A DNA stretch of 64,000 nucleotides, taken from positions 9,700-73,699 of IMG/VR virus record IMGVR_UViG_3300015610_000633; one strand, written 5' to 3'. A model generated the notes under the pieces. That model ran no database searches, was not told the origin of the DNA, and saw only the letters and a list, made by a program, of their open reading frames with translations. Positions 1 through 64,000 of the stretch are shown piece after piece. Source of the stretch: a virus (lineage: Duplodnaviria > Caudoviricetes). Position 1 is the first letter of the stretch. The number at the start of each line of letters is the position of its first letter. The position numbers were made by a program, and so were the translations under genes.

Positions 1-1327
1 ACTCATCGCGCTTCGGGATCAACTCGTTCACCGATGTCTTCATTCGTTCAACCGTGGTTCGTATGGTGCGAAGGTTCACAAGACGATCCACATCATCACC
101 GCTCACTTGTTGCGGCTTCGGGTTGTCACGTATCCAAGCAATGGCATCTTTCGCCGCTTCGTATTGCCTCCTGAACTCTTCAATCCGAGCTTCATCACGA
201 AGCGTTTGTGTTAGCTGCTTTTCAAGTGAATCGACTATATCGATCAACTTGTTTTTTTCTTGTACAGCAACATCGGCTTCTTGCTTCTTCGTTCGGGCTT
301 CTTCGGTTTGACTAGACAACTCAGCCTGTACCTGTTCGGGTGTATGACAACCCTTGCAAGTCACAGGACACACACCATCAAACCCGCGCTCAACCTGCTT
401 CAAATAGTAATCGGCCGTTTGTGTCTTGCGTGCCGCTTCTGTTGTGAGCTTGTAAAGCTCCGTTCGCTTCTCGCTCAACCGTTGCGATATGGGTTCGCTT
501 GATGCACCCAACCGTTGTTTGAACTCGCGAGCGTTCGTGATGATTTCATCAACACTATCGGCCCTTTCTTTCATGGTCTGCCACTTCGCGAGCCTCTCTT
601 GAACTCGCTCATATGTAGCAACCCGACCTTGTGCGATCTCAATCTCAGCATCCAACGCCGCGATCGCTTCATCGACTCGTGACATGTTCGATTCTGTCAC
701 TTCGATGTTTAGGATCTTAGACAATGATTCGATCGCCCTCGTGATCGTCGCTTCAACAGTCAGCAGTGAACCCATATTCAAGCTAACGGTTGTGGTGGTT
801 GTCTTCTCTTTCTCTTTGGCTACTTCAACCGCCTTATCGAGCTTACTAAGGTCAAGCCATGCCTTGACCATGTCTAGCCGTTCACTCGGTGATGACAGAA
901 TGAATCGGGCCATTTGCCGTTGCTCGAAATAACAGGTGTTGAAGAAATCACGTTGCGACATGCCGAACATACGCAACACCCGATCGCTAGCTACTTGATC
1001 AACGAACTCGCCTTCATTGTCTTTCAAATAAAGTTTGGTTGCACCACCATCGCGAAACCGTTTGATCGTTGTGCCGTTACTCATCACCAACGTAACCGAA
1101 CCCGAACGTTCACCACGGGTGATCCATGCTTCTTCGCGATCAAACCGGTGATATCCGAACAATGCGAACGGTATCGACTCCAAGAACGTCGACTTGCCTA
1201 CCCAGTTCGATCGTTCGTGGTTGTGTTGTTGTCGAGCAACAACGGCGTACACCTTCGGTTCAAGATCAAGTTGTTGAAGGCCACGATATCGACACCAGTT
1301 TTCAAGAATAATTTGCTTCACATACAT
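1..1327 (-). CDS. sbcC: SbcC/Rad50-like (gp46-like) ATPase subunit of recombination nuclease, truncated by the window edge
   Basis: Not in the ORF track because it has no stop in the window. Manual translation from ATG 1327: MYVKQIILENWCRYRG...SNWVGKSTFLESIPFALFG (Walker A variant), coiled coil, then a CPVTCKGC hook-like motif. TGATG overlap with the upstream gene. Confidence 0.88.
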   Translation of the reverse strand, partial: MYVKQIILENWCRYRGLQQLDLEPKVYAVVARQQHNHERSNWVGKSTFLESIPFALFGYHRFDREEAWITRGERSGSVTLVMSNGTTIKRFRDGGATKLYLKDNEGEFVDQVASDRVLRMFGMSQRDFFNTCYFEQRQMARFILSSPSERLDMVKAWLDLSKLDKAVEVAKEKEKTTTTTVSLNMGSLLTVEATITRAIESLSKILNIEVTESNMSRVDEAIAALDAEIEIAQGRVATYERVQERLAKWQTMKERADSVDEIITNAREFKQRLGASSEPISQRLSEKRTELYKLTTEAARKTQTADYYLKQVERGFDGVCPVTCKGCHTPEQVQAELSSQTEEARTKKQEADVAVQEKNKLIDIVDSLEKQLTQTLRDEARIEEFRRQYEAAKDAIAWIRDNPKPQQVSGDDVDRLVNLRTIRTTVERMKTSVNELIPKRDE

Positions 1328-1740
1328 CACACACCTGCTCTTTCGAACACTTCGATCTTCGCTCTCTCGAACGCTTGCTTCAATGGGTGTTCTTGCCCGT
1401 ACACGCGGTTGAAAACGTCGGTGATGTGACGATCGGCAATACTACGCAATGTTACACCGTTCGTTGATTGTACGGGCAATGCAGGCGCCTTGGTTCGGTA
1501 TCTTGGCATCAACCGAACCGAACAACCCTTACCCGTCAACCATTCAACCGCCTTGTTCACATGACGAGCTTCGGCATGTTCGGGCACATACAACCGAACG
1601 AAGAACCCACCTTCAAACGTTGGTTCAGGTTCTTCATCGGTAAAGAATGCCCACAACGGATCATCAACTCGAACAGTCAACAACTTACGAGCCGAAGCAT
1701 CAACAACGAAACTTTCACGCGGTTTGATCGTTCGTCTCAT
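1327..1740 (-). CDS. Hypothetical protein between SbcD and SbcC (possible separate SbcD C-terminal domain)
   Basis: 137-aa ORF translationally coupled on both sides. Confidence 0.7.
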   Translation of the reverse strand: MRRTIKPRESFVVDASARKLLTVRVDDPLWAFFTDEEPEPTFEGGFFVRLYVPEHAEARHVNKAVEWLTGKGCSVRLMPRYRTKAPALPVQSTNGVTLRSIADRHITDVFNRVYGQEHPLKQAFERAKIEVFERAGV

Positions 1741-2492
1741 AGCTTCACCATCATGTAACCGGGGTTGTGATCTTCCTCATCGAAGTGCAACCTTGCCAGT
1801 GAACCAACAACCACCACTTCAACGCCTTCACGCTGAACGGTTTGGTGTCGGTGATAATGGCCTTGGTACACCCGAACATTAGGAAGCAAGCGAAGCCGAT
1901 CAAATGGCAACTCATGATCCAAACCGCGCGCCATGTCACCCGATTCTGAACCGGGTACCATCCCTTTGATTTGCATGTGGCTAATCACTATCGTCGGTGC
2001 ACTGGCATTGCACAACGATGCAAACTTCATCACGTCATTCGCAACACACAGATCATTGTTGTAAGTCGCTAGCGAAGGGTAAGGCAACGCAACCAAGTTG
2101 AAGGGTTGACCTTCGGTGATGTCGCGAGGCTTACACGTTGGGCGATTGTAGAAGTACGGCTTGACCTTCAACGCTTCCGATACGGTGCGAACAATCGAAA
2201 GTGTTGAGTGCTCACTCAACGCCTTCACCACGTCATGGTTGCCTTGCAACCAATGTGAACGAATGCCCGCTTGCGACAACTTCACCACAACACGGACAAG
2301 AAGATCTTGGTATTTGTACCATTCACAAGCGTCAGGTTCTTGGTAGTCACCCAAGAACATAAAGTGTTCAACCTTGTTGTTGATCGCTTCTTCAACAAGC
2401 CATTCGATGCGCTCGCTCAACTCAGAGAACCGATTCACACCCGCGGTTGATGCGTCTACGTGCCAATCACTAGACAGCATTATCGAGATCAT
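1737..2492 (-). CDS. sbcD: SbcD/Mre11-like metallophosphoesterase nuclease
   Basis: SDWH, GD, GNHD and GHYH calcineurin-like motifs; adjacent to the SbcC-like gene. Confidence 0.9.
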   Translation of the reverse strand: MISIMLSSDWHVDASTAGVNRFSELSERIEWLVEEAINNKVEHFMFLGDYQEPDACEWYKYQDLLVRVVVKLSQAGIRSHWLQGNHDVVKALSEHSTLSIVRTVSEALKVKPYFYNRPTCKPRDITEGQPFNLVALPYPSLATYNNDLCVANDVMKFASLCNASAPTIVISHMQIKGMVPGSESGDMARGLDHELPFDRLRLLPNVRVYQGHYHRHQTVQREGVEVVVVGSLARLHFDEEDHNPGYMMVKL

Positions 2493-3694
2493 AACTCGCC
2501 CCCCTTATCGGGTTCGCGTTCAGCCATTTCAAGGCGTACGCATTGCGTAAGTTCACAGTTCAACTTTATATCATCGCGCAACGCATGAAGTAGTTGACGT
2601 TCACCGTGCCACTTGCGATCGCCATATGCCAACCAAGAACCCGACGCTTGAACTATGCCGAACTTCTTAGCCATGAATAGGAGATCGCTTGCTTCATCGA
2701 AGCCTTCGGGTGAATCAACCCCGTTGCTCGTATGAAACCAAGCAAGAGTATTTTTGCCTTCTTTACCACCAACTTTAGTTTTTCGAATGGTCAACCTATG
2801 ACGTTCACCGATCACTTCAGCGTCTTCACCGGTGCCGTTTTTCATCCATGCGTCGCGCTCGACTCGAATGATCAACGATGAGTCGAACTCAAGCGCGTTA
2901 CCCCCTGTCATTTTCCAGTCAGTTGCAAACATATCGGTTGACGTGTTTTGCGACTCTCGGGTGATCGCTATCATTGTCGCGCCTGCTTCTGCCAACATAG
3001 GGATCAACTCGTCAAGCCACGCCGCGTTCATGGCTGCTTTGATCATACCAGCGCGACCCTTGAAACCATCGATCCCATTGTCTAGCTTTTCTTTCTTCAG
3101 TTCCGCGGTCATCTTCGCAAGTATGCTTTCGGGCACAAGCTTGCGAATCGAGTCAACACAGATCAACGCTCGGGTACTCGGATCAATCTTACCCGACTTT
3201 TTGCCCTCGATTATGTTGTGCAAAAACTTACGAGTATTGAGCGCGGTTTGCTCAAACGACTTAGGACGTGAAGCGACGAACAACGGCGAGTTTGACACTT
3301 CACCCATCAAGCCACGAAGCCAACCGATCGGTGTTGTATATTCGGCATCTATGAACCAATAGAAATGTTGACGTTGTAGGAACGAAGAGCCGATACCATG
3401 ACAAAACGAAGTCTTGCCATGTGATGAAGGCCCATGAACCACAACAAACCTTTCGGTAGGCATTCCCCCAACTCGTGTAGCCCAATCAAACGAAATGAAC
3501 CGAGTAGGTACAGCCACAACTTCATTCAATACTTTCGCGGCGGGTTCAATACCATCGATCCCCGCGTATATCGATGAGATCGCCTTTTCATTCGGCGCGA
3601 TCGGTTTGGGCGTGTAGACGCTATCAGGGTCAAAGAAGTCTTCATCAAGTGGCGATTGTTTGATCGGTTTGCGTGGCATGATTGTGATCTCCAT
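2489..3694 (-). CDS. recA: RecA/UvsX-like recombinase
   Basis: GPSSHGKT Walker A, VDSI Walker B, TGGNALEFDSSLIIRV; last sense codon is TTA (TTA TGA). Confidence 0.93.
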   Translation of the reverse strand: MEITIMPRKPIKQSPLDEDFFDPDSVYTPKPIAPNEKAISSIYAGIDGIEPAAKVLNEVVAVPTRFISFDWATRVGGMPTERFVVVHGPSSHGKTSFCHGIGSSFLQRQHFYWFIDAEYTTPIGWLRGLMGEVSNSPLFVASRPKSFEQTALNTRKFLHNIIEGKKSGKIDPSTRALICVDSIRKLVPESILAKMTAELKKEKLDNGIDGFKGRAGMIKAAMNAAWLDELIPMLAEAGATMIAITRESQNTSTDMFATDWKMTGGNALEFDSSLIIRVERDAWMKNGTGEDAEVIGERHRLTIRKTKVGGKEGKNTLAWFHTSNGVDSPEGFDEASDLLFMAKKFGIVQASGSWLAYGDRKWHGERQLLHALRDDIKLNCELTQCVRLEMAEREPDKGGEL

Positions 3695-8503: not shown

Positions 8504-9660
8504 GACACACCTAACTTTTCAATACGTCGGGTTGAGATTTGAAGCGTCAAGTGACCACCCGCGTTAGGCTTTAGCTTGAAAAACATTTCAACATTGTTTT
8601 CAAGCTCCAATCGGCCCCATGGTTCATCAGCAAGCTTCTTCGCTTCTTTGGGTGTGTCACCTTTCTTTGCAGGTGTAGCGAATAGCTTCACGGTCTTATT
8701 GCCAGTGATAGACGCGATCGTGATTACGTCTTTCTTTGATGTGCCAGTTGTAGCGGGTGCACCTTTGCCCGCTGCGCCGCTCTTCGCGGTAGCCTTTGAA
8801 ACATCTTTCTTTCGGCCTTCTTTGACCGGTGCCGCTTTGCCTTCTTTCTTGTTCTTCTCTTTGGTGGCGTCTACCTGTTTTTGAAGTTGACGCTTAGAAG
8901 CAGTTTCGGCGATCGCGAGAAGTTGCGCTTGATCCTCGGGTGGTACCTGCAACAGCAACCCAAGCTTCGAAGGTCCAAACTTCATCACCTGTTCTTCATT
9001 GAATGCCCTCGCGATATCCATCAGGTTGTAGGCATGTGCAGGGCTAATCTTCAGTTCGTTTTCACAGAACGCGTTGAAGCTGCTGTACAGTGATTTACCT
9101 TCGGCGTCTGTTCGTAGTTTCCACAACGCCTTCGTGTGGTTCTCTGCGATCAACTTGCCGATAGTCCAATGCGACTTTGCAGCGTTACCTTTCGCTTCTT
9201 GTATGGCTGCGACCGATTGATCAAGATCTGCGATGGTACCTTGGGGGATGATTTCGGCGTCGTGAATGGCCCCCCCTTTCTTCGGTTTGCTCATTGTGGC
9301 CGGTGATACCTTCGCGAGTGCTGTCGTCGTTTCTGGTGTAACTGGCGCCTTCTTCTTGCCCTTCGGTTTAGCTTCGGGCTTGTCTTGTTTGGGTTCGGGT
9401 GTTTTCACGGTTACGCCTTCGGGTGGTTGATCGGACATTCCACAATAAGGGCACTCATCGAATGAGATACTTGAAACGCCTTCGCAACCATCGCACTTCA
9501 CAAGTTCATCGGAAGGCTTAGTAGCGAAATAATCACTAAGGTTTTTGATGTTTTGCGCCAAGTCAGCGGTCACTTCAATACCGACCTTTTCAAGCGCTTG
9601 ATTGATTAGTTCGGGCTTCACCTTGCTTAGTTGAACACCTGCTACCGTTTTGCTTGCCAT
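8500..9660 (-). CDS. Putative DNA-binding protein (Zn ribbon, HTH-like centre, Lys-rich region)
   Basis: CDGC..CPYC; HWTIGKLI...YSSFNAFCENELKISPAHAYNLMDIAR segment; Lys/Ala-rich tail; in-frame TTA at 8512 near the end. Confidence 0.6.
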   Translation of the reverse strand: MASKTVAGVQLSKVKPELINQALEKVGIEVTADLAQNIKNLSDYFATKPSDELVKCDGCEGVSSISFDECPYCGMSDQPPEGVTVKTPEPKQDKPEAKPKGKKKAPVTPETTTALAKVSPATMSKPKKGGAIHDAEIIPQGTIADLDQSVAAIQEAKGNAAKSHWTIGKLIAENHTKALWKLRTDAEGKSLYSSFNAFCENELKISPAHAYNLMDIARAFNEEQVMKFGPSKLGLLLQVPPEDQAQLLAIAETASKRQLQKQVDATKEKNKKEGKAAPVKEGRKKDVSKATAKSGAAGKGAPATTGTSKKDVITIASITGNKTVKLFATPAKKGDTPKEAKKLADEPWGRLELENNVEMFFKLKPNAGGHLTLQISTRRIEKLGVS

Positions 9661-23251: not shown

Positions 23252-23271
23252 ACGTCTACCCGGTTAGACGT
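23252..23271. repeat. Quasi-palindrome, copy 6 (putative origin region)
   Basis: ACGTCTACCCGGTTAGACGT. Confidence 0.95.
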
Positions 23272-23570
23272 CGGGGCGGGGGGTTGGGGGGTTGGGGCAC
23301 CCTGCTTCGGCGTTCCGCCGTTGTTGGCCATGGTTGATTCACGAAAACATCGGGGTTCGTTTTTCCCTTCTCCCCCTGCACCCCCTTATCCCTTTTCAAG
23401 ATTTCACTTCGTGAAATCTTAAGTTTTTGATCTCTTTGATCTTTTTTGATCTTCGGATCTATATGGATCTTAGATCTTATTATTAAGATCAAAAGACTAA
23501 CCGCGCGCATACATACACGCGTGCGCGTACACATACGCGAGAGAAACACAGCGACATATTTTTGAACTAC

Positions 23571-23580: not shown

Positions 23581-24261
23581 ATGAATATGTTCGCTCACGA
23601 GATCTCACCCGACTTCAACTCAAAACGGTTCACAATCAAAGACTACTTGACGGTTACGGCTGACAAAAAGCTAGGATATGCCCTAATCTTGGGCAGCAAA
23701 GATCCTAACACTGAGCTAGGCCGGTTTGAAAAGATAGCCGTTGATCAACGTCGCCCCCCTGCAATGGAGTTGCAGCCATGGCGAGACAAAAGCAATCGTT
23801 CACGGTGGTCAATACGAATGGCTCAATATAGGCAATATGCGCTTGAGAGCGGAACCGTGAAGGTTGGGTTGATAGCTCCTGATCTCAAGTGGGTAGACTC
23901 AGATAATGATCAACTTCTTGTGCGAATCAACACACACATGAAGGGCAACCCTTCGGAACTGGCAAGGGAAGGAACGATCGACATTCTAACCCCTTCACTT
24001 GCCATTAGAGTCGCCGATCCCGCATGGCATCAGTTCGGTGCCCATAAAGCACAAGATTGGCTTCTACGTCTCAAGCCAGGGGCCATAGTTTCTATTCATT
24101 GCGATCACGTCGGTATTAGACCTGTGTACGTGGTCTATATCGATGATGAACTAAAGTTGAACCCCCACATGTTGCCCGAACCATCACCACCCCCTTCACG
24201 CATTCATTGGTTAGATACTAACCCGATCAATGCCACATGCACCACCTTCGCAGGTTTCTAG
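23581..24261 (+). CDS. Hypothetical protein, only plus-strand gene (would end at TTA 24211-24213 if TTA is a stop)
   Basis: Long ORF with no opposing gene over most of its length; GCCGCATAAT motif immediately upstream. Confidence 0.7.
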   Translation: MNMFAHEISPDFNSKRFTIKDYLTVTADKKLGYALILGSKDPNTELGRFEKIAVDQRRPPAMELQPWRDKSNRSRWSIRMAQYRQYALESGTVKVGLIAPDLKWVDSDNDQLLVRINTHMKGNPSELAREGTIDILTPSLAIRVADPAWHQFGAHKAQDWLLRLKPGAIVSIHCDHVGIRPVYVVYIDDELKLNPHMLPEPSPPPSRIHWLDTNPINATCTTFAGF

Positions 24262-36923: not shown

Positions 36924-37247
36924 TCAGGTTTTTTCGTATTGCTGGATTGCTACATCATCGGGATCGGGGTCGAACGATGCAACCCTACCACCGCCCCATT
37001 GCAACCCCCCAGAAATAGACAGCGGGTTGTTCAAGTCACAGTTCAGCGAAAGGCTAAACGAGAAGAAAGGAAGCGGCGGCGGAAAGGGAATGGCGGGCAA
37101 GTTCAGGTTGAAAAACAACCTGAACGAAGGGAGTGCAAACCCACACAAGCTAGCAGCGGGCGGACCAGCAACGAACCCCGCGCTAACCATCGATTGATCT
37201 TGTTGTTGTACCGGTGGTGCGTCGGGTGGTGGTGGTGAACCTGCCAT
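36924..37247 (-). CDS. Small Pro-rich hypothetical protein
   Basis: Start MAGSPPP at 37247, which overlaps an upstream TTA (TTATG). Confidence 0.6.
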   Translation of the reverse strand: MAGSPPPPDAPPVQQQDQSMVSAGFVAGPPAASLCGFALPSFRLFFNLNLPAIPFPPPLPFFSFSLSLNCDLNNPLSISGGLQWGGGRVASFDPDPDDVAIQQYEKT

Positions 37248-38278
37248 AAACCCACCGTGAACCCTACACACCCGAGACCGGGTGTAGTTGCGCCAGTTGC
37301 GGGATCTGGACTCTTAGGACCGAGCAACGCGGCGTTGATTGCAGACAACACCGCTTGACTCAACACACCAACGGGCGGGGTTGAAGCGGTGATCGCTGCT
37401 AGTATCAACGGCAAGTTAGCGGGGTCAACAAGCATTGCACCAAGCATTGTACCCGTTAGAGGCGTAGGCCCCAAAAGATTGAGCGCAACGCCAAGGGCGT
37501 TCAACACCTGCGACACGAAAAGAACCGTTGATTGTGCTGTTGTTATAGTGCCGAACGGTGGGTTGCCCGAAGTGGAGATCGAAAAGGTACCCGGTGTTGC
37601 GGCTTGTGCTTTGGTAGAACTCCAATCAAAGATCGCGCTACCGTCAACGGACATACGGATCAGCTTGTTGGTGTAATCAAGTTGAAGCAGCATTTCACCA
37701 TCGCCCGATTGCATTCCTATGAAGTCGGCACCCAAGTGAAAGAAGCCCCCTGATGAATCGCTAAACGTCATATTGCCGTTTGCTTCAATCCCGAAGTACG
37801 TACCCGTTACGGCACTTCGTACAAGGTAGCTTGAAGCGGTTTCGATTACGTAGGGAACCCGCATCCTACGAAACGCAAAGTTGTTACCACTCACTTCGTT
37901 ACCTGCGACCATGGTAGGGAATGCATCGATCTCTTGATTCATTCTACCCACGATCACGGCGTTACCCGGTGAACCTTCGGGCATCACAACAAGAACTTCA
38001 TCCCCTTCAAGAAAGGGGAACCATTCACCTTCCCCATTGCCTGCGACTGTACCCGCTACACGCGCACGAACGGGGATACCCGCGGGTTGAAGAGTGACAT
38101 TCACCAACGGACCATACTCGGGTGAAAATACGACGGCTTTACCGCCATCTTCTTCTGATTGATCCTTATCCACTAGGGCCATTGAAACCCATGCTCGCGT
38201 ATCAATACCCGGCCCCTTCAATAGCTCAACAAGTTCATTGACGGGGAATCGCCCGAATGTTCGAGACATAAGATCCAT
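37103..38278 (-). CDS. Baseplate spike/hub protein, gpV/gp5 OB-fold type (would end at TTA 37247-37249)
   Basis: VRARVAG..AGNGEG.W.P..EGDEVLV....G.PGNAVIVG motif; beta-repeat C-terminal region. Confidence 0.8.
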   Translation of the reverse strand: MDLMSRTFGRFPVNELVELLKGPGIDTRAWVSMALVDKDQSEEDGGKAVVFSPEYGPLVNVTLQPAGIPVRARVAGTVAGNGEGEWFPFLEGDEVLVVMPEGSPGNAVIVGRMNQEIDAFPTMVAGNEVSGNNFAFRRMRVPYVIETASSYLVRSAVTGTYFGIEANGNMTFSDSSGGFFHLGADFIGMQSGDGEMLLQLDYTNKLIRMSVDGSAIFDWSSTKAQAATPGTFSISTSGNPPFGTITTAQSTVLFVSQVLNALGVALNLLGPTPLTGTMLGAMLVDPANLPLILAAITASTPPVGVLSQAVLSAINAALLGPKSPDPATGATTPGLGCVGFTVGLWQVHHHHPTHHRYNNKINRWLARGSLLVRPLLACVGLHSLRSGCFST

Positions 38279-40065
38279 AACTGTTTACCCCCTGCGTTTG
38301 TTTGGGTGGTTGTCTTCTTCGGGGTTCCCGGTGGTGGTTTCACAGGTTCATCAGGCCCCAATGATTTATCAGCCCTGACTTCAAGGTAGTTTCTCCCTTG
38401 TATTTCGATCTCTACACCCATGTCACAATCCCATCTAATGCCAACTTGTGCAGTTCTGAACGTGGTTTGAAAACCAACGTTTGAATACACTTCGGCGTAA
38501 GCTTTGGCGATTGCACCATCATACCCCAATGTTTCGAGGTATTCCCTAGCGCGTTGTTGAAGCAACAATATGTTTTCGATCGAAGTCATCGAGTTGTATT
38601 CAACGTTTTCACGGTTGACTTGTAGATCGAAAGTATCACCCGGTTGCATGTCGAGTATATCGGGATCAAGGTTGCCACCCCCGAAACTAGCCATGTTTTT
38701 CGTTTTCACCGAAACCGTGAACTCACCGCGGTTTAGTTGTTCATAAACCGATTGAGCGATGATTCTCAACTGCAACGGATCTTTGATGGGAAGGTTGACC
38801 CGATGAACGATCCATTTTTGATCGGCCACATCACCCGGCAATACAAGAACCCCAAACACACGATCACCCGGCAAGGGGAACCTAGCAACCATCACCTTTT
38901 TGCGTTGGGGGTTGTAACACCGAACTTCAACATTCTGCATTGCTGCAAATGTGAACTGCCTTGCAATCTTAGCCGATTCGATATTTCGACCATATATCAA
39001 GTGGCGATAAGTCAACAGCTTACCGCTTTGCACTTGTCTCGGTACATAGGGATCGTCATCCCGTACTGTGAAATCAGAACTAGTGATCGTGCGCACCCGT
39101 TGAATGATTATTCTATCGCCCAACATACGGCACATGTGCCCGATAGAGCCGCACACATCAGTCAAATAATCCCAAACCGAAAGATCTGAACCACCCCCCG
39201 GTGGTGGTCCTAGTTGCGGCCTGTAGGAAGTACCCGCGAGTGTTTCCGCAAGCTTAGGGGGAGTCGCGTTTTGTGGCACATATTCGACCGTTAGACCTGC
39301 GCACCGAGGGAAGTTGCAAAGGTATAGCGCTATGGCTCGATCAATCGGTTCTTTGGCGTTTATGAACAACTGCGGGGGAGCTTTTTGATCGATCAACAAT
39401 ACCGTGTTGTCGCGACAATCAAGACGCACAAGCGGTTCACCTTCTTCACTTATTTCAGTTTCCCATTTATCAACCCAACCTTCAAAACGAAGGTTACTCC
39501 GTTGTTGCCCCCAACTGTCGATATACGTATCGGGTATTACATTCAACAACTCAGTACCCGCTTGATTGTACTGACCCGCGCTTACCGCTCGCGTTTCGCC
39601 ATTCATGCCGTGCCTGTATTCATCTTCAGTCAAACACCCAAGATAATATTGAACGCGACAAGCTCTAATCACACGAGGGTCAAAGGGAAGATCGATCCAT
39701 TTGAAAGTCAGGTTCAAAACATCGGCTTGACGTATGCCGTTGATACCTAGCGCCGCTTCTTTAGGAATGATCGCCCCTAGTGGTTGGGTAAGATCATCGC
39801 GGCTATTTTTTCGATTCAAAGATGATTGCGGTGATTGTACTTCTTTCGGCTTCAAAAAATAACGTGTTGTACCCGGTGGTGCAGTCTCATCGGGTGTAGG
39901 GTATAGCGGTGCGATCCTTCCCTTAGCGCCCCTTAGAAGTTGTGGGGGAACCTTCGGCGCCAGTGCCATCACAAGATTGGTTTTTGACTTCATTTCATCG
40001 AAACGAAGAATCAACCGTACTTTAGCGGCCGGGTAGTAAGTTTGTTCGGGGAACTCTATTTCCAC
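38218..40065 (-). CDS. Baseplate hub (gpD/late-control-like) protein (would end at TTA 38278-38280)
   Basis: Position after the LysM-like gene; VRLDCRDNT and YGRNIESAKIARQF features. Confidence 0.7.
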   Translation of the reverse strand: MEIEFPEQTYYPAAKVRLILRFDEMKSKTNLVMALAPKVPPQLLRGAKGRIAPLYPTPDETAPPGTTRYFLKPKEVQSPQSSLNRKNSRDDLTQPLGAIIPKEAALGINGIRQADVLNLTFKWIDLPFDPRVIRACRVQYYLGCLTEDEYRHGMNGETRAVSAGQYNQAGTELLNVIPDTYIDSWGQQRSNLRFEGWVDKWETEISEEGEPLVRLDCRDNTVLLIDQKAPPQLFINAKEPIDRAIALYLCNFPRCAGLTVEYVPQNATPPKLAETLAGTSYRPQLGPPPGGGSDLSVWDYLTDVCGSIGHMCRMLGDRIIIQRVRTITSSDFTVRDDDPYVPRQVQSGKLLTYRHLIYGRNIESAKIARQFTFAAMQNVEVRCYNPQRKKVMVARFPLPGDRVFGVLVLPGDVADQKWIVHRVNLPIKDPLQLRIIAQSVYEQLNRGEFTVSVKTKNMASFGGGNLDPDILDMQPGDTFDLQVNRENVEYNSMTSIENILLLQQRAREYLETLGYDGAIAKAYAEVYSNVGFQTTFRTAQVGIRWDCDMGVEIEIQGRNYLEVRADKSLGPDEPVKPPPGTPKKTTTQTNAGGKQLWILCLEHSGDSPSMNLLSY

Positions 40066-40085: not shown

Positions 40086-41333
40086 TCAACCTGCAAGGGT
40101 AGGTATAACCAACACTTTACCAACGGGCAGTGCGGTCATAGTCCACGGCAAACTATTAGATTTCAGGATATCGATCGCGTGGTCTGCAGTGTTGTAGAAC
40201 TGCAACGAAACTGAAGAAGCAGTGTCACCCGCCCGAACAATGTACAATGATTCAACCGTTGAAGGTGTGGTGTTCTTGGTACCTTGTGAAGTGGCTTGAC
40301 CACCACTTGAACCTGAACGGCTATACTGCTTCAAAAACTGCAACATGACACTGTTGACTTGTTTAGTAACACCATTGACAGAATCATGACTCTTACCGAT
40401 CAAAGTGACGTTACGAAGTATGTCAGCCGCATTGGTTGTTTTGCTTTGTTTTTCTGCAGGTATAGCCGACACGGTTTGTGAATATTGTTTGGCTATTGTT
40501 GACATATTATCCATGGCTTGCGTGACAGTGTTTTCAACCTGACCCGGTATTGATGCAACCTTGTTCACAAGGTCAGTGAAGTTTTGAAACTGCTTAGCCA
40601 TTTTTTGAAGATCTCGCGTTACTCCCTTCACAAGATTGTTAGGATAGTCCGCAAGATTCGACAGTTGATCAAACGTTAGATTAGGAACCCCTTGTCCCTT
40701 CTTCTTTTTTTGACCATCGGTGTTGATGACAATATCAGTATAAAAGTTGTCTACTAGTTGGTTCATATCAAGCACCAACTGAGAAGCTTCGGAAGCAGGA
40801 TCACCCGTTCGCAACGCAACAACTTTCTGTTGTGTAACGCCGCGACTCATCCAAGCCCATTCAATGCGCCACCCTATATCCGACTCGGTATCGTGGTTGA
40901 AAATAATCGAAGCAGCTCGCCCTTCACGAACCAATGAAAAGAACGCATCGATCTGCGCCGAACTAACCCATGTCACGCGCAAGCGCGCGCCTTGCCTGCA
41001 TATTTGTTCCATGAGTTCTTTCAAAACCCATGGTGTGGTGATCTTGGTTTCGTTACCCCCTTCGCTATACAATGCGGGTGATTTACCCATCATCGTTCTA
41101 CGCCAAAAACCCTCAAACGTAGTTGGTGGTTCAATAGGGCCAAGAACCTGTTGTGTGGCTTCACTAGCGTTGCCACTATACCATGTAGTTGTGATCCTGT
41201 TCTGTGTGCCCCATGAAACACCCCTATGTGGCAAAGTAGGACCGCGCAGCGTGATCTTACGTTCAAGCCCCGACACTTCTTCGATCGTGATTTCACTAGT
41301 GAAGCTTGAAGGCTGAACAGTTTTGATCGCCAT
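40086..41333 (-). CDS. Tail tube initiator / LysM-containing baseplate protein
   Basis: C-terminal YIVRAGDTASSVSLQFY...PVGKVLVIP LysM-like motif; ATG 41333 lies just after a palindrome; the ORF track fuses it with the upstream acidic region. Confidence 0.65.
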   Translation of the reverse strand: MAIKTVQPSSFTSEITIEEVSGLERKITLRGPTLPHRGVSWGTQNRITTTWYSGNASEATQQVLGPIEPPTTFEGFWRRTMMGKSPALYSEGGNETKITTPWVLKELMEQICRQGARLRVTWVSSAQIDAFFSLVREGRAASIIFNHDTESDIGWRIEWAWMSRGVTQQKVVALRTGDPASEASQLVLDMNQLVDNFYTDIVINTDGQKKKKGQGVPNLTFDQLSNLADYPNNLVKGVTRDLQKMAKQFQNFTDLVNKVASIPGQVENTVTQAMDNMSTIAKQYSQTVSAIPAEKQSKTTNAADILRNVTLIGKSHDSVNGVTKQVNSVMLQFLKQYSRSGSSGGQATSQGTKNTTPSTVESLYIVRAGDTASSVSLQFYNTADHAIDILKSNSLPWTMTALPVGKVLVIPTLAG

Positions 41334-41343
41334 GGTGTGCTTG

Positions 41344-41363
41344 ACGTCTAACCGGGTAGACGT
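41344..41363. repeat. Quasi-palindrome, copy 10
   Basis: ACGTCTAACCGGGTAGACGT. Confidence 0.95.
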
Positions 41364-41798
41364 GGTGAATAAATCAGCTTCGGGATTGAGCAGCGCTTGT
41401 GCCCAAACTGACAAGGGTACAAGTCGTTCAGAAAGATCTTCAAGTGTCTTGTCGGCTGCGTCTTTCGGATCTTCGGGAACGTCTGCACCTTCGGCGGCTT
41501 CTTGCGCGGCTGCAACGGCGGCTTCGGCGGCGGCTTGTGCTTCGGGATCTTCCGGGTCGGCTTCAGCTGCTTCAACTGCACCTTCGGCAGTTTCGATCTG
41601 GTCTTCTACTTGATCGATTTCGCTACCTTCGGCTTCACCATCAGCGGGTTCTTCATCACCCGATTCTTCATCATCCTCGGGTGGTGGCAAATCATCGCCT
41701 TCTTCGTTGTCTTCTGTTGGATCAAGAGACTCAAGATCCTCCTCTTCATCATCTTTGCCAAGTATGTTTTTGAGCGCCGAAACGATCTTGTTTGCCAT
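41349..41798 (-). CDS. Highly acidic hypothetical protein (separate gene only if TTA 41349-41351 terminates)
   Basis: MANKIVS start with GAAAGGTG upstream; E/D/A-rich; first TTA falls inside the palindrome. Confidence 0.5.
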
Positions 41799-41814
41799 GT
41801 TATCACCTTTCTTA

Positions 41815-43899
41815 TCACGGCCCGAACACACCACCAACTTTAGCATTGCGTCGATTTTCAGCGGCGTTGATGATGTCGCGTTGAAAGATCATGGCAATAC
41901 GATCGGGATCTTGATCCCTGAAATCTTGCTTCAAGTTGAAGGTGTTGTTGTTGAACTCCACTTTGGGATTCTGCTTCATTGCGGGTGCTTCTGCCAAACC
42001 CATGAGCTTCTTTTTGAAGTCTTCGGCACCATCACCGACCATTGAAGCCAATAGCTCGAACCCGCCTTGAACCTCGGTACCGGCCTTCAAGAACATTTGT
42101 TGAAGCGCTACGTTGCCTTCAAACATCTTGGCTATGGTCTGCATTTGCACCTTGTTACCGTTCACAACCGCGGTTGAATACGCATCAATGAACTGTTCAA
42201 GTTGCTTTACATCTTCCATATACGCTTCGTTGCTGTCTTGCTTCACGCCTTCTTTGGCCATGTCATGACGTGCGTTCATCGTGTCGCGCATCATGTCAGC
42301 GGCGTCTTGTGCTTTATTGATTACGGCTTGGTTTTTCTTACCTTCTTCGTATAGCCGATCCATTGCATCGGCCATTGATTTCAGTTCTTTCTGTGTGTAA
42401 CCAGCCGATTCGCCGAACTCGAACACCCGCTTACGCAACATGTCGTAGTCTTTGGCGGTAGCTTCACGCGTACCATTCGCCCAACCCGCGGCTGCATCCA
42501 TGGTAGCCAGCAAGTTGTCATTAGCTTCAACATGCCACGGTAGGACCGCCCCGAACTCTTTCATGTATTGCGTCGCTTGATACACAGCGGCACCGACACC
42601 CACAACAGCAGCCCCGAACGCTGCAAGGCCCGTAGCAGTGGCACCCAGCGCCCCCGCTGCGCCTGCACCCATGCTACCCTTGGCAATGTGTGCCGCTCCG
42701 ACAGCCGACGCTGCTGTAGCGGCTTGAGTGCCCGCACTGGTCAACGTTCCTACGGCACCCGTAACCGCGGGTATTGCCGCTTTGGCACCAAACGCAACAG
42801 CTATCTCTTCTTTATGCGCCAAGATAAACTTGAACACCTTCTCAGCCATTTCGAAACCTTGCGAGATCGCATGTTTGATTTCGTCGGCATGAGTCACCAC
42901 ATAATCGAAGCCCTTTTCTATAGCTTTCGCGGCTTCGCTAATATATTTCGTCACCTTCTCACTGAACATTCTAACGAAGCTCTCAATCACTCCCTTGTTC
43001 GCTTCAAGCTTCTCTTTGAACCTATCGAGAGCAGGCACAACCGCGGCTATGATTGGCTTACCGAAGCCTTCGAGAAACCGATCTTTCATCGTGCCTAGTT
43101 GCTGCATAACGGTTTGAAAGGTTGCGGGCACACCAACCATTTGCTTTGCCATCTTACCGATCGCGACTTGTGCAAACGACATAGCCGATGCATCGGTTAG
43201 AAGATTCAACTGTTGTGCAACCTGCTTCGCGTTCCCTTTGAGGGTACCCGTAGCGGCGATCATTTGAACGATCGGATCTGTAGCCTTCGCACCTTGCGCG
43301 CTGAAGTTGTTGAACGATTGTGCAAGCGCTTCGGGACCACCTGCGACCGCTCTACCCGCAGTGCCTATATTTCGCATAAGCTTAGCGATGTCTTCATCGC
43401 TTCGCTTGAAGGCTTTCTCCCATTGGTTCAGGGGCATATTGATCGATTGCCCCGAAGCCGTAATGAACGAACGCGAAGTGTTGAATGTATTTGCTAGGGT
43501 TGTGTAAAGCTCCGTTGCTGTATTCTTTGCAATACCGGTGCGCGCAGCAAACCGATCCATTTCAGAGTTGAAGACGTTTGCTTTCTTCGCGAGGGTATCC
43601 CAATCGGTGCCAGCCTTCGCGGTTAGCGACATTAGGCCGGTCATATGTTTTTGAGTATTTTCAAGGTCGAGCGCTTTGGTAAACGCTTCTTTACCCATTT
43701 CAAAAAGTTTACCCGTTGACATGGCCAACTGAAAACCAAGCGCGGTTGCGGCTGCTTCTTTGAAGAAACCCACAACCCCCGCTTGTGCCTTATCAGCAGC
43801 GTCGGAAAGGTTACCGAAGCCTGACTTGATCTTATCCATTGCGGCCTTGGATTGATCGTCAAGCTTGAAGACTGCTGAAACTTCAGTTTTTGCGGCCAT
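41815..43899 (-). CDS. Tape measure protein
   Basis: Ala/Gly-rich helical 694 aa between the chaperones and baseplate genes. Confidence 0.85.
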   Translation of the reverse strand: MAAKTEVSAVFKLDDQSKAAMDKIKSGFGNLSDAADKAQAGVVGFFKEAAATALGFQLAMSTGKLFEMGKEAFTKALDLENTQKHMTGLMSLTAKAGTDWDTLAKKANVFNSEMDRFAARTGIAKNTATELYTTLANTFNTSRSFITASGQSINMPLNQWEKAFKRSDEDIAKLMRNIGTAGRAVAGGPEALAQSFNNFSAQGAKATDPIVQMIAATGTLKGNAKQVAQQLNLLTDASAMSFAQVAIGKMAKQMVGVPATFQTVMQQLGTMKDRFLEGFGKPIIAAVVPALDRFKEKLEANKGVIESFVRMFSEKVTKYISEAAKAIEKGFDYVVTHADEIKHAISQGFEMAEKVFKFILAHKEEIAVAFGAKAAIPAVTGAVGTLTSAGTQAATAASAVGAAHIAKGSMGAGAAGALGATATGLAAFGAAVVGVGAAVYQATQYMKEFGAVLPWHVEANDNLLATMDAAAGWANGTREATAKDYDMLRKRVFEFGESAGYTQKELKSMADAMDRLYEEGKKNQAVINKAQDAADMMRDTMNARHDMAKEGVKQDSNEAYMEDVKQLEQFIDAYSTAVVNGNKVQMQTIAKMFEGNVALQQMFLKAGTEVQGGFELLASMVGDGAEDFKKKLMGLAEAPAMKQNPKVEFNNNTFNLKQDFRDQDPDRIAMIFQRDIINAAENRRNAKVGGVFGP

Positions 43900-43901: not shown

Positions 43902-44222
43902 TCAGGTTCTTTCGTTCAATGATGACATCGCATTTTCTTCACCGATAACTTTGCCCACGGCTTGAAGAAGTCGATGAAGCTCGCCAAGTGGTAGTTGCTT
44001 GATTTCATCAAGTGAAATCCGACCATAACGAGACAAGTACACACGGCGTTTGATGATCTGTTTTCGACGTTCATCAGGATCAAGATCGATCCCGGCTTGC
44101 TTCGTACCCGCTAGGACCTCGTAATGGGGTAGCAAGTCTTCAAGCATGGCTTCCAACCAAGTCGGATGAGGGGGCAAGCCCTCATCGTTATCGGTAAAAT
44201 CACGGTCCTGGTAGCCATGCAA
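43902..44222 (-). CDS. Tail assembly chaperone, -1 frame extension
   Basis: YLSRYGRISLDEIKQLPLGEL; in the -1 frame relative to the upstream chaperone at a T7 slippery site. Confidence 0.7.
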   Translation of the reverse strand: MHGYQDRDFTDNDEGLPPHPTWLEAMLEDLLPHYEVLAGTKQAGIDLDPDERRKQIIKRRVYLSRYGRISLDEIKQLPLGELHRLLQAVGKVIGEENAMSSLNERT

Positions 44223-54929: not shown

Positions 54930-55307
54930 CTACGTTCCTAACATCGGGATGTCGTTATCAACCTGTTCAACACCCGCGAAGTCTGGTGTTGCGGTTGAGC
55001 CTGCACTTTCGCCGATCAACTTGAACGGCTTCTTACCCGCTTCACCGGGCTTGTTGTACACCTGTCGGGTTGTGGTGCTTGCAAACGGCAAGCGTCCACC
55101 CGCGGGTACTGTGTCTTGATTGATGCCACCTGCACCCATTGGTTGCGGGGCGGGCTTCTCTGCTGTGAAGTCGCGACCCCCACCCTTTCGACCGTTCCCG
55201 GTTGGGTTAGTCAAAAAGTTGTTACCACCCGATGAAGCGCCAAGTGATGTTGCACCCGCGCCGTTGCCAAAGGGGGATTCACTGCCGTTACCTGGATTTT
55301 CAGCCAT
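54930..55307 (-). CDS. Gly/Pro-rich hypothetical protein
   Basis: 125 aa, low complexity; in-frame TTA at 54939, three codons before TAG. Confidence 0.6.
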   Translation of the reverse strand: MAENPGNGSESPFGNGAGATSLGASSGGNNFLTNPTGNGRKGGGRDFTAEKPAPQPMGAGGINQDTVPAGGRLPFASTTTRQVYNKPGEAGKKPFKLIGESAGSTATPDFAGVEQVDNDIPMLGT

Positions 55308-56686: not shown

Positions 56687-58517
56687 GGTGCTCTAACCCT
56701 CCCGGTGGTCCCGGTGGATCTTTGATGAGATCGGGTTCGTCTTCTTCAACTACGTTTTCGGGTAGTTCTGTCGGTGGTGCAGGTGGTTTCTTGTCTGCCC
56801 CATCGGGTAGCTCGTCACGATGGGATACAACCCCGCCCGCATCACCGGGGAACATTGCGCCAAGTTGATTTTGTTCATCGATCGCTTGTTGCTTCAATGC
56901 CCTGAACTCTTCATCAGGGTTCAAGTCATATGCTTGTGCGACTTGCGCTACTGCTGTGCGATGACTTAGCACTGGTTTTTGACCCGCAGCGGCTTGTGCT
57001 GATGTTGCGATCGCTTGTTGATCAAGTGGGGTTGCTTTGAAGTATGACCCCCACTTGAACCCGATCTTGCCACCATTGCCCGGTTCTCGTTCGATGGGTA
57101 CGAACTCTTCTTCACCAGTGAGTTCACCCATTTCATCGGTTAGTTGTATCTTTTCAAACTTTGGGGGAAGCATCAAAACTTCTTCACCTTCAACCGGGTT
57201 ACCCTCATCATCAAGAACAATCACCGTTTGTTTCCACCTGCGTTTTGCACAAGCAAACATGTTCGTGATCATGCGTGTCATACCCCGCCCGTATTGTTGA
57301 CGGAGTATGTCGCACTTCGCAGTCATGGCCGAATAAATCACCTTCAACGCAACGCTTGAAGTGCCTTGCGCTGCAAGCAAATCGGGATCGGGTAGAACGC
57401 ATTCAACAACTTCGAGAACCATCTTTCGAAGTCGATCTATTAGATCCATACCAGCGGTGATCGATGCACCGCCAAGTTCCAAGTATTTAGCGTCTTCATT
57501 AGGGTCAAGAATCAACGCATTGTCTGAACCCTTACGAATGCCCCGCCGTGCAACCATCTCAGCGTCCACGTTGAGCACAAGCGTCGGATCAAGGTTCAAC
57601 ACACCACCACGCGCAACAACCGACGTCAACAGGTCAAGCGTGTCAAAGTTATCATACTGCCCGTCATAATCTGCTTCACCATCGACTTCATCGCTAGGCA
57701 AGTTTTGAATCCATTCGAAGTGACATATACCATCGCCATGTGCGATCGATCGTTCTTGATCGATAACCCACACAGGTTCGCTCACTTGATTATTCGTGAC
57801 AGGGATCTCTTGATAAATGAGATCGAAATCGGGTAGCCAATCACGGCGAAACCAAAACCATTGTTTTTCTACGCGCCGAAGTTGCGGGTTCCATTCGTCG
57901 CGACTGAACCGATACATTTCAATCACGTGTTCGGGGATCAACTCATCACGATCGGCCCACTTGTTGATAAAAATATGTTTGGCGTTGTGCACAGTAAAGC
58001 GAGGCTTACCCTGATGAAAGCACCACGAAATACCAACCGAACCGGTAGAACCACCGAGATCGCGAGCGCGTACCATCTTCGGCATCAACCCGCCTTCATC
58101 GATCAAACATTGAATGAAGTCTTGAGTGTTTTTATCACCGTCAACCGTAACAGTGGGTGAGCGGTGTTCGCTGAACAATAGGTTAGTAAACGCGCGTACA
58201 ATCTTCTTCGCTAGTCGATATGGTGCCGAAGGTCGGCGTTGTCGCAATGGCACCATATGCGATATTTGATCGGTAACTAGCAACGGGTTACTAACCGACC
58301 CTTGCGATACTAGACGCCCATCAAAATCAAAACTTTTATGATTGTGTTGAGTACAAGAAAAATATGACTCTTTGCGGTCAAGCTCCATGAACCGTTCAGA
58401 GTTCACGATCAAGTTGATATTAGGACCGCTACCCATGCCAGCGATGCCCCCATACTGACCGGGATCACCGAGTATCCCTAGCGCTTGACCGGGTGGTAGA
58501 ACGTTCGCGTATGCCAT
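56652..58517 (-). CDS. Portal protein (would end PPGPPGG at TTA 56694-56696)
   Basis: 621 aa upstream of the gpF-like gene; portal-like architecture (SGVALK-like TSSVALKVIY, acidic tail). Confidence 0.85.
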   Translation of the reverse strand: MAYANVLPPGQALGILGDPGQYGGIAGMGSGPNINLIVNSERFMELDRKESYFSCTQHNHKSFDFDGRLVSQGSVSNPLLVTDQISHMVPLRQRRPSAPYRLAKKIVRAFTNLLFSEHRSPTVTVDGDKNTQDFIQCLIDEGGLMPKMVRARDLGGSTGSVGISWCFHQGKPRFTVHNAKHIFINKWADRDELIPEHVIEMYRFSRDEWNPQLRRVEKQWFWFRRDWLPDFDLIYQEIPVTNNQVSEPVWVIDQERSIAHGDGICHFEWIQNLPSDEVDGEADYDGQYDNFDTLDLLTSVVARGGVLNLDPTLVLNVDAEMVARRGIRKGSDNALILDPNEDAKYLELGGASITAGMDLIDRLRKMVLEVVECVLPDPDLLAAQGTSSVALKVIYSAMTAKCDILRQQYGRGMTRMITNMFACAKRRWKQTVIVLDDEGNPVEGEEVLMLPPKFEKIQLTDEMGELTGEEEFVPIEREPGNGGKIGFKWGSYFKATPLDQQAIATSAQAAAGQKPVLSHRTAVAQVAQAYDLNPDEEFRALKQQAIDEQNQLGAMFPGDAGGVVSHRDELPDGADKKPPAPPTELPENVVEEDEPDLIKDPPGPPGGLEHHGHRQEGLRTK

Positions 58518-59829: not shown

Positions 59830-60557
59830 TTTCGATCTCCGTTTCTGAGTGCTGTCATTTTTATCGTGTACACATTGCACAATGCTTGTGTGTACACGAT
59901 CGGTTCAACCGAACCGTTTGATCGCTTGAAGTTGCTGATTTCGATTCGCGCTTTTCTTATTGCACCGATCAACCTGTTTTGCAGGTTCGAAAGTGAATCG
60001 GGTGTCAACCTGTAATGTTTGATCAAGTTACACAACCCGATCGGATCTTCACGCTCGATTGTATCCCATAGTTTCGCGGTCGAACCGTACATACGCCGCA
60101 ACATATACACGAAGTCAATGCACCCATCGACCGACGAATCAAACGCGGGTCGCTTAGTCATTGCGTGAGGCGGTTCAAACCACGTTTGATACTTTAGGCC
60201 GTTCGTTGTTAGCTTCGCAGTACCCGGCCCGTTGTCTTGTGAAACTAGATCGCCCCCTTCTTTGGAACGAAACGAACGGATCTGCTCTTTCGTCAACCAT
60301 TGACAACTCACAACCGACGTCCACTTGAACCACACATTGGCATCAAGTGTTAGTTGCGAATAGTTGAAGTTGTAAAGCTCCGTTGTACCCCAACGCGTAG
60401 CCAACCCCCACAACGCAAGAAGCAACGCCGAAGGCGGTTGTGCTTTCTCCCCTAGTGCAGTCCACGCTAGGTCTAGTTCTTTCGATACTACCCCGATCGT
60501 TAGATCGGTAACGCGGTGTTGTGGCAAGTAATCGGGTGATGTTCGGTCTAGCAGCAT
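59826..60557 (-). CDS. Hypothetical protein, possibly a degenerate glucosaminidase/lysozyme-like fold
   Basis: LALWGLATRWG...YNFNYSQL loosely resembles the AQ..LE.GWG...NN.FG motif but lacks the catalytic Glu. Confidence 0.45.
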   Translation of the reverse strand: MLLDRTSPDYLPQHRVTDLTIGVVSKELDLAWTALGEKAQPPSALLLALWGLATRWGTTELYNFNYSQLTLDANVWFKWTSVVSCQWLTKEQIRSFRSKEGGDLVSQDNGPGTAKLTTNGLKYQTWFEPPHAMTKRPAFDSSVDGCIDFVYMLRRMYGSTAKLWDTIEREDPIGLCNLIKHYRLTPDSLSNLQNRLIGAIRKARIEISNFKRSNGSVEPIVYTQALCNVYTIKMTALRNGDRK

Positions 60558-63218: not shown

Positions 63219-63238
63219 ACGTCTACCCGGTTAGACGT
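63219..63238. repeat. Quasi-palindrome, copy 15
   Basis: ACGTCTACCCGGTTAGACGT. Confidence 0.95.
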
Positions 63239-63906
63239 AACGCCGCAACGGGTACAGTTGTCTCACCGGTAGCGGTAACAAGCTTAGCGCCAGCAAATGC
63301 GGTAACGATCGAAGCCCATAGCCCTTTGCGGGCACCAACTGGCACAACCCAAACTTTGGTTGCACCGTCAAACCAAGCACGGCAGTTGTTAGCGCGTACG
63401 GCTTGATTGAATGCAGGGCTATATGGCGCCTTCACCTTGTAGCTATCACCTTCGCGGGTGACGCTTAGAACGGGTATTGCAGGGGCATTCACAACACCCA
63501 TGTTGGCAAGGCGCAACGCCTTCCCGGCTTGCTTTTCGATCTTGTTCGCAAGCTTCACGAAGCCGAGCATACGAAGCGCCACAACGAAGGGGCCTCGCGA
63601 TCCCTTGTACGAAGTCGCGGCATGGTGAACGAGCACGTTCGCGATCTTCTTCACATCGATCGATTGCTCGGCTTCAAGGTCGTTCAACGCCTTGATGTTC
63701 ATCGGATGAACAGCAGACCAAAAAGCAACCCAATCGATCACGAGTGTTTCTGCGATGAAGCCGTAACCATATGTTTGACGGCAATCGGGGCCGATGCCCA
63801 ACTCAACGCTAACCGCGTCGGTTAGCTTGCGACCGCAACACACACAGCGTGTTGCTACGAGTTCACATGCGGGTGAGGCTTCGTGATTTGATTGGGTGGT
63901 GGTCAT
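63223..63906 (-). CDS. DUF6011-like Zn-finger protein with C-terminal HARP-like segment (would end at TTA 63238-63240)
   Basis: CVCCGRKLTDAVSVELGIGPDC; KVKAPYSPAF...FDGATKVWVVP. Confidence 0.75.
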   Translation of the reverse strand: MTTTQSNHEASPACELVATRCVCCGRKLTDAVSVELGIGPDCRQTYGYGFIAETLVIDWVAFWSAVHPMNIKALNDLEAEQSIDVKKIANVLVHHAATSYKGSRGPFVVALRMLGFVKLANKIEKQAGKALRLANMGVVNAPAIPVLSVTREGDSYKVKAPYSPAFNQAVRANNCRAWFDGATKVWVVPVGARKGLWASIVTAFAGAKLVTATGETTVPVAALRLTG

Positions 63907-63948
63907 TGTTCTTGTCTCTTTCTTTCTCGGTCCGCGTTGGATGTCCAA

Positions 63949-63990
63949 GTTATGCGTTCTTTTTGACCTACCGTCAAGATCTTTTTTCAA
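63949..63990 (-). promoter_or_regulatory. Sigma70-like promoter, twin of the 12758-12800 promoter
   Basis: AAAAAAGATC-TTGACG(63977-63972)-17 nt-CATAAC(63954-63949). Confidence 0.75.
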
Positions 63991-64000
63991 CGGTAGGTCG

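Follow-up and report, generated by a model that had tools for sequence, protein, structure and literature searches.

The 64,000-nucleotide stretch of DNA analysed here, which we call the window, runs from base 9700 to base 73699 of a linear virus record of 73,699 bp (IMGVR_UViG_3300015610_000633), and coordinates given below without a contig name are those of the window. It has a G+C content of 48.8% and contains about 70 genes, nearly all of them on the minus strand. According to its Pfam and PHROGs matches, it is the DNA of a tailed phage. These matches outline a replication module (sbcD-like, RecA, PolB, sigma-like, UvrD, primase and DnaB genes, together with two helicases, an MTase-SNF2 gene, a dNMP kinase and NrdJ) and a contractile-tail structural module (baseplate J, a Phage_base_V-like spike, a LysM protein and the portal); a dCMP deaminase gene is also present (60529-61137). 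The subject of this work is the codon TTA (UUA in the messenger), which in this phage is found at the 3' ends of genes and very probably marks functional translational gene ends there.

The completeness of the 73.7-kb record is about 81% by CheckV. Near-identical contigs of 86-88 kb (L035, L036, L037, L039 and L041), which come from no fewer than four ENA samples and two from JGI, start at different points; hence the complete genome is about 87 kb long and probably circularly permuted. One of these assemblies (ENA ERZ22302045) has a coverage of about 166x, and the phage is abundant in some samples. Contigs of this full size are also present in ENA ERZ17987696 and ERZ27282915 and in JGI 3300015606, and shorter ones in ERZ27283041 (about 75 kb), JGI 3300015607 (about 10 kb) and SRR6837583 (about 9.5 kb). 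The 13 kb absent from the record, which could be read in the near-identical assemblies, carry Amidoligase_2, GGACT/AIG2 and MT-A70 genes and several large unknown genes. The closest cultured phages are distant, with an identity of at most about 28% for PolB and for the portal, and no more than 27% when the portal is taken alone.

An earlier note on this DNA, made from the letters alone, had proposed that TTA is a stop codon, present at the end of 15 genes and absent from the body of all of them. All the 15 positions that it listed do lie in the frame of a long open reading frame (ORF). We counted codons in the 80 ORFs of the record taken from their first ATG (23,737 codons), in which TTA occurs 20 times in frame and 242 and 206 times in the +1 and +2 frames, never in frame in a credible gene body. 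TTA represents 0.03 of the sum of TTA and TTG, versus an A-ending share of 0.23-0.79 in the 13 other codon pairs. Other A-ending codons are frequent (316 CTA and 270 ATA), TTG is the most used leucine codon (762 uses) and TCA is an ordinary codon (447 uses). The large genes are free of in-frame TTA, as already noticed for the MTase-SNF2 gene: the in-frame, +1 and +2 counts are 0/12/12 for this gene, 0/10/6 for polB, 0/11/8 for nrdJ and 0/13/12 for a fibre-like gene. When ORFs are taken from stop to stop, with a minimum length of 200 codons, TTA is found four times among 13,827 body codons versus 12 times among the 1,410 codons that make up the last 30 of each ORF, and the next rarest sense codon of these ORFs occurs 30 times. 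The same clustering is seen in the first set of ORFs, where 15 of the 20 in-frame TTAs lie at most 30 codons from the canonical stop, a region that holds 11% of the leucine codons (binomial P = 6e-11; 0 of 200,000 permutations).

The remaining five in-frame TTAs are the end of the spike gene (47 codons before the canonical stop), the end of the dCMP deaminase gene (61 codons before), the two TTAs of a 586-aa ORF discussed below, and one in a doubtful AT-rich ORF of the divergent intergenic region 23256..23549. Three of these five are gene ends according to their homologs, and a fourth is a second TTA located seven codons further. Four extra in-frame TTAs appear solely when ORFs are extended to GTG or TTG starts; all of them are upstream of the ATG, mostly with a Shine-Dalgarno (SD)-like purine run before it, and two sit within an intergenic palindrome. 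In the 13 kb outside the record, TTA is found once in frame, at a terminal position, and 36 and 39 times out of frame (4,229 codons). Over the complete genome (about 28,000 codons), no in-frame TTA was found in a credible gene body. Under a four-stop reading, the gene ends of the record are distributed between TGA (57), TTA (14), TAA (11) and TAG (5); the three canonical stops are still in use, as had been stated. About 15 of about 87 genes (around 16%) are closed by TTA, among them the portal, the spike, several baseplate genes, RecA and the dCMP deaminase. Under table 11, the ORFs are long and intact, with no in-frame canonical stop inside genes.

The ends of homologous proteins provide a test of these positions that does not use codon frequencies. 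The spike (Phage_base_V-like, 343 aa, with GFTVG as its last residues) has its TTA at 37247..37249, in a TTATG overlap with the next gene. Homologs came from an earlier search and from HMMER run against 1.84 billion representative proteins, and 158 have an alignment reaching the C-terminus; 137 of these end at position 0 or -1 of the conserved glycine column that precedes the TTA of the window. All six genuine extensions start with leucine and continue into unrelated tails of 3 to 114 residues; for P0003, P0004, P0125 and P0128, the leucine at the stop column is known as a residue, from the protein alone. In two sister phages (P0122 and P0126), the spike ends at the TTA column of the window with a canonical stop. 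A distant spike homolog of 463 aa, P0325, runs for 115 residues past the terminal glycine with an extension that begins with leucine, and its gene may likewise be closed by TTA, in another lineage.

For the other genes, columns were compared with those of two standard-code relatives, G001 and G002 (103-kb and 83-kb contigs from metagenome-assembled genomes (MAG), with 67% and 71% G+C), which carry TTA in gene bodies. Over 17 gene-relative pairs, the median offset between the ends is 4 residues when TTA is taken as a stop versus 13 with the standard code; in 83 control pairs, in which the gene of the window stops at TGA, TAA or TAG, this median is 2 residues. Except for one plus-strand gene, all the ends described here are on the minus strand. 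The canonical stop of both G001 and G002 aligns exactly with the TTA of a 259-aa gene of the tail module (g44111..44974, TTA at 44195..44197), and the tail that follows is non-coding-like in the upstream frame and coding-like in another. G001 has a TAG in the same column as the TTA of a baseplate gene (g31233..32165, TTA at 31284..31286), which stands in a TTATG overlap with the baseplate J gene. In the case of the 382-aa gene upstream of polB (g8500..9660, TTA at 8512..8514), both relatives end at most one residue from the TTA, and the product is 5 residues longer if read by the standard code. The dCMP deaminase gene is closed at 60529..60531, 202 codons from the longest start; a relative ends 7 residues before this TTA column versus 69 before the canonical stop. 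Under the standard code, this enzyme would gain 61 residues and its gene a 215-nt overlap, in a tail that is coding-like in the downstream frame. The RecA-like gene has its TTA at 2492..2494, followed by TGA, in a TTATG overlap with the sbcD-like gene, and its G002 homolog ends in the same column (offset 0); because TGA directly follows, this site does not discriminate alone.

A TTA at 41370..41372 divides the 586-aa ORF (40086..41846) in two, the first gene being 158 aa long and the second, with its ATG near 41333, about 415 aa. The corresponding genes are separate in relatives, in which they measure 160 and 415 aa, or 412 aa: the homolog begins at query residue 182-183 of the ORF and the stop lies 5-20 codons upstream. 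The earlier note was right that TTA divides a fused ORF here, and wrong on the triplet, having listed 41349; the first closure, at 41370-41372, comes seven codons earlier, and the TTA at 41349..41351 is a second in-frame one that falls in an intergenic copy of the palindrome (41344-41363). The sole clear plus-strand gene (23581..24213) has its TTA at 24211..24213, the same triplet being the TAA of nrdJ on the minus strand, and taking it as a stop abolishes a convergent overlap of 51 nt.

Other ends were compared with those of closer relatives, described below, or are known from their context. The baseplate J-like gene ends at 30175..30177, where TTA is followed by TGA, and a 98-aa gene (g32505) ends at 32562..32564. 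The 595-aa baseplate/hub gene ends at 38278..38280 in a TTATG overlap with the spike gene. The portal gene (607 aa, ending in GPPGG) has its TTA at 56694..56696, closely preceded by GGGAGG, and the next ATG follows at a distance of 7 nt. The TTA of a DUF6011-like gene, at 63238..63240, provides with its A the first base of a 20-bp palindrome. A 116-aa coiled-coil-like gene (TTA at 33463..33465) has a homolog too diverged for column comparison, and a 122-aa gene of the head module (TTA at 54939..54941), in which TAG comes two codons on, is weak alone, the C-termini of its homologs being variable.

The sequence that follows TTA, up to the next canonical stop, was scored by codon-usage log-odds trained on 16 long genes, for which the true-frame mean is +0.33. 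In the upstream frame, the scores of the five longer tails run from -0.06 to -0.62, and reading them in phase with the downstream gene gives +0.22 to +0.50; two short tails, of 16 and 18 codons, give an ambiguous result. The tails of the spike and of the hub score as non-coding in the frame of the upstream gene. Substitutions between the window and a sister contig, L032, go in the same direction: the 48-nt tail of g31233 carries 13 nucleotide differences, and 14 of 15 amino acids are kept in the downstream frame versus 6 of 16 in the upstream one. Altogether, the post-TTA sequence is under no protein-coding constraint in the upstream frame, which indirectly suggests that it is not translated there. 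The junctions with the following genes are also of the type seen with a canonical stop. TTATG is present at seven ends of frames of at least 60 codons closed by TTA, TGATG is equally frequent and TAATG is found once; at the five annotated TTATG junctions, the ATG opens the next gene and is preceded by a G-rich SD-like sequence.

The palindrome mentioned above (ACGTCTA-N6-TAGACGT, with loops ACCGGG and CCCGGT) is present in 15 copies between 4032 and 63238, some of them in 5' leaders and some inside genes. At four gene ends (61412, 50979, 33859 and 32197) it begins at the last A of TGA or TAA, and the copy at 63238 begins in the same register with the last A of TTA. The palindrome is a candidate terminator or regulator-binding site.

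Closely related phages show TTA and TGA replacing each other. The sister contig L032 (16 kb, 51% G+C), the spike of which is 82% identical to that of the window, has two in-frame TTAs, both terminal, among 4,594 codons, and 38 and 43 out of frame. In exactly the same column, TTA in the window corresponds to TGA in L032 at three ends (spike, g32505 and baseplate J), and TTA is retained at two others (g31233 and the 595-aa hub gene). The hub tail to the next canonical stop is 2 codons long in L032 versus 19 in the window. In L001, the portal gene (76% identical) has its sole TTA, out of 612 codons, in the column of the window, and then a different tail; portal tails after TTA differ in four relatives. 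The small gene upstream of the portal is closed by TTA in L001 and by TGA-TGA in the window, the two ends being separated by three codons. The earlier note had suggested testing whether homologs end at the TTA columns, and they do so for the spike (137 of 158) and for the coinciding stops of G001, G002 and L032.

The terminal use of TTA extends beyond these sister phages. In a tree of spike proteins, the clade of the window (six proteins) is fully supported, and a second fully supported clade groups L034 and L043. L034 (45% G+C) has three in-frame TTAs among 3,016 codons, all 4-26 codons from a canonical stop. L043 (Logan SRR13171217, 18.8 kb, 53% G+C) has 11 among 6,047 codons, never two in the same gene; TTA closes 10 of its 17 genes, a share far above that of the window. 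The use of TTA as an apparent terminator thus varies widely between lineages. On the contrary, relatives at 56-71% G+C carry TTA inside genes, at 0.3-3 per 1,000 codons and without terminal enrichment. The code, as it can be read from gene ends, differs between lineages of one phage family, which is the pattern expected if the host sets the code.

Taken together, the frame-specific depletion and 3' enrichment of TTA, the stops of homologs, the interchange of TTA and TGA, the unconstrained tails and the TTATG junctions uphold the central claim of the earlier note, i.e., that TTA marks ends and is never a body codon. Its remark that reading TTA as a stop removes overlaps and tails also stands, since the 51-nt convergent overlap disappears, the 215-nt overlap of the dCMP deaminase gene is avoided and the tails are non-coding-like. 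We consider it strongly likely, from these sequence comparisons, that UUA ends translation in this phage as a fourth stop codon, in addition to TGA, TAA and TAG. Some observations weigh against this reading. In one distant relative, the hub protein exceeds by 21 residues the 595-aa form that ends at TTA; the C-termini of portal proteins among distant relatives are too variable for column comparison; and two of the 15 TTAs are directly followed by TGA, several others having a canonical stop in 2-6 codons. Because a canonical stop follows within 0-6 codons, such sites do not discriminate alone.

As for the machinery, we somewhat favour, as the cause, an altered release factor within a code that applies to the whole host. 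UUA would not be read as leucine in cells expressing the phage and translation would stop there; by analogy with organelles, a class-I release factor with a relaxed reading of the second base would catalyse release at UUA, with presumably no tRNA-Leu(UAA) competing for the codon, and both the release factor and the tRNA state would be properties of the host. In organelles, UUA as a stop goes with a Ser204 substitution in RF2, and UUA and UUG as stops go with an altered mtRF1a (PMC12574857). In the phage, we found no RF-1 domain in the 73.7-kb record, no tRNA, tmRNA or any Rfam family in the window, and no leucine or suppressor tRNA in the genome of about 87 kb. Pfam matches related to translation were likewise absent from the roughly 50 proteins scanned and from the lists precomputed for the missing 13 kb. 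The machinery is probably that of the host, because the phage genome of about 87 kb has no release factor or leucine tRNA. The fuller picture, to which we would give even chances, is that of a bacterial host, and thus a lineage of free-living cells, with a genome-wide four-stop code, an altered class-I release factor and a lost tRNA-Leu(UAA), to which several unrelated phage families would have adapted and which would form a natural firewall.

A tRNA-like gene does exist in the missing 13 kb (L039:14380-14450), on the minus strand, the genes there being on the other one; it scores 41.7 bits with the tRNA family of Rfam. ARAGORN assigns it to alanine with the anticodon UGC. C33 replaces U33, the alanine pair G3:U70 is replaced by C3:G70, the D-loop lacks GG and the T-loop (UGCAAAU) is degenerate. 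We rejected this gene as a cause, since an anticodon UGC cannot read or mimic UUA. Attempts to name the host gave little: ESM Atlas look-ups with UvrD and the GH25 lysin returned no usable taxon, single-protein scans of viral contigs returned no match, and the sole results of two scans of genome contigs with portal alignments were the whole phage genomes of the standard-code relatives, as MAG contigs of 83 and 103 kb.

A codon can also close genes without being a stop. UUA could be unassigned, with neither tRNA nor release factor, chains ending by stalling followed by peptidyl-tRNA drop-off or ribosome rescue. Such a codon would be absent from gene bodies and terminal just as well as a true stop, and both drop-off at hungry UUA codons (PMC10732093) and rescue at unassigned codons (PMC6207430) are documented. 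The genes at stake make this explanation unlikely: TTA closes essential and abundant structural genes (portal, spike and baseplate), and 10 of the 17 genes of L043, and the coupled TTATG junctions are as frequent as TGATG. Stalling with tmRNA tagging would be slow and would mark these proteins for degradation, which is hard to reconcile with use at 16-60% of gene ends.

On the other hand, a stop codon could be used in a host that has the standard code. In this case, a phage factor would remove tRNA-Leu(UAA) or promote release at UUA, truncating host proteins as well and thereby shutting off the host. Stop-codon-recoded phages carry their own decoding parts, which is a precedent; many ORFs here have no known function, and TTA ends are somewhat more numerous in the structural (late) module (10 versus 5, as a raw count). 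However, the searches for an RF-1 domain, for translation-related Pfam matches and for a leucine or suppressor tRNA were negative within the scopes given above, and replication genes that are presumably early (RecA and the gene next to polB) also end with TTA. We regard a change encoded by the phage as quite improbable.

A third possibility keeps TTA as leucine: it would be a very rare and slow codon, as in the bldA system of Streptomyces, and the tails would be real C-terminal extensions. The earlier note had named this rarity as the alternative to a stop. TTA rarity with a regulatory use is well known in high-G+C actinomycetes (PMC10732093), and the relatives in the phage family are indeed high in G+C. 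Nevertheless, with 49% G+C, the genome makes free use of the other codons ending in A and of other rare codons, and rarity predicts neither the coincidence with the stops of homologs nor the TTA/TGA interchange. Moreover, codon usage and substitutions both mark the tails as non-coding, close relatives have unrelated tails, and a fusion of 586 aa would be needed for two genes that are separate elsewhere. This explanation is therefore very hard to sustain. As to an artefact of sequencing, assembly or base modification, e.g., a miscalled TAA, the presence of genes for a ThyX-like protein, a dCMP deaminase and a dNMP kinase might be a sign of modified DNA, but its probability is close to nil, because independent ENA, JGI and Logan assemblies agree (one mismatch in 10.8 kb), diverged relatives from other samples have the same pattern at orthologous and at different sites, and miscalling would not deplete body TTA in one frame only.

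The window is also poor in some tetranucleotides: TTAA is observed 3 times versus 314 expected and AATT 6 times versus 314, and GATC is enriched 2.3-fold. TTAA depletion is common to the standard-code relatives and to L043 and is not found in L034, and AATT depletion is confined to the clade of the window (window, L001 and L032). The pattern resembles restriction avoidance and has no link with the TTA code. Such avoidance was rejected as the cause of the missing codon, since TTA is abundant out of frame, TTAA is depleted in standard-code relatives and L034 is not depleted. Outside the window, on its upstream side, lie ThyX-like, GH25 lysin, PDDEXK and PAPS-reductase/ParB genes. The 459-aa ThyX-like protein (L031:805-2184, minus strand) co-occurs with the dCMP deaminase (60529-61137) and the dNMP kinase (21745-22365), and a PAPS-reductase/DUF3440 gene and three ParB-like genes are found just upstream of the window; these two groups of genes may correspond to modified bases or to a DNA-modification system.

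If a fourth stop is confirmed, this phage, and probably a bacterium with a UUA stop, would extend sense-to-stop reassignment to cellular and viral genomes of normal size. Gene callers using table 11 give wrong C-termini, false overlaps and fused ORFs with such a code, for about 16% of the genes here and about 60% in L043, so that public protein databases already contain these errors; screens that infer the amino-acid meanings of codons are blind to such codes. The difference in code between related phages represents a new handle on host range. A TTA code would be a natural counterpart of engineered codon-removal firewalls and, in the host, a natural firewall against standard-code phages and mobile DNA. 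Finally, the acceptance of a pyrimidine at the second position by a release factor becomes testable in a bacterial system.

Our full-text literature searches found sense-to-stop reassignment in organelles only and no bacterial or phage case, in agreement with the earlier note. The latter had cited the mitochondria of Thraustochytrium, and this precedent is correct, but it is not the sole one, dinoflagellate plastids and some green-algal mitochondria being also concerned (PMC12574857); the 2025 report on plastids presented itself as the first sense-to-stop case outside mitochondria (PMC12574857).

Several known systems single out the same codon or also depart from the standard code. In Streptomyces and its phages, UUA is decoded by a single dispensable tRNA, bldA, and drop-off and bypassing at hungry UUA have been discussed (PMC10732093). 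There, TTA is a sense codon inside genes in DNA of about 72% G+C, unlike in the present phage, where G+C is 49% and TTA stands at gene ends. Stop-recoded phages, such as crAss-like and other gut phages (PMC7886860), are likewise mis-called under table 11 and have a code that varies between relatives. However, in their case a stop becomes a sense codon, with in-frame stops and often suppressor tRNAs or release factors, whereas here the direction is the reverse and neither was found. In the mitochondria of Marsupiomonadales and Pseudoscourfieldia, UUA and UUG are both stops and mtRF1a is altered (PMC12574857), while the phage keeps TTG as leucine. Dinoflagellate plastids of green-algal (pedinophyte) origin are like the phage in that UUA is a non-mitochondrial stop and closes a large proportion of their genes (PMC12574857). 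They have UUA and UCA as stops, an RF2-type factor is proposed as the reader, and RNA editing removes internal UUA (PMC12574857); in contrast, TCA is a normal codon of the phage, and no internal TTA needs editing. The labyrinthulean Thraustochytrium, whose mitochondria follow NCBI table 23, shares with the phage the passage of UUA from leucine to stop while UUG stays leucine, and both were recognised by the absence of the codon from gene bodies and its position at conserved gene ends. The setting differs, since table 23 serves a small organellar genome with a Ser204 substitution in mtRF2a (PMC12574857), while here we deal with a tailed phage of about 100 genes that implies bacterial translation. 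At the sequence level, the phage nevertheless displays the three signs of table 23: TTA is absent from gene bodies, it coincides with the stops of homologs, and the sequence downstream of it appears to be untranslated.

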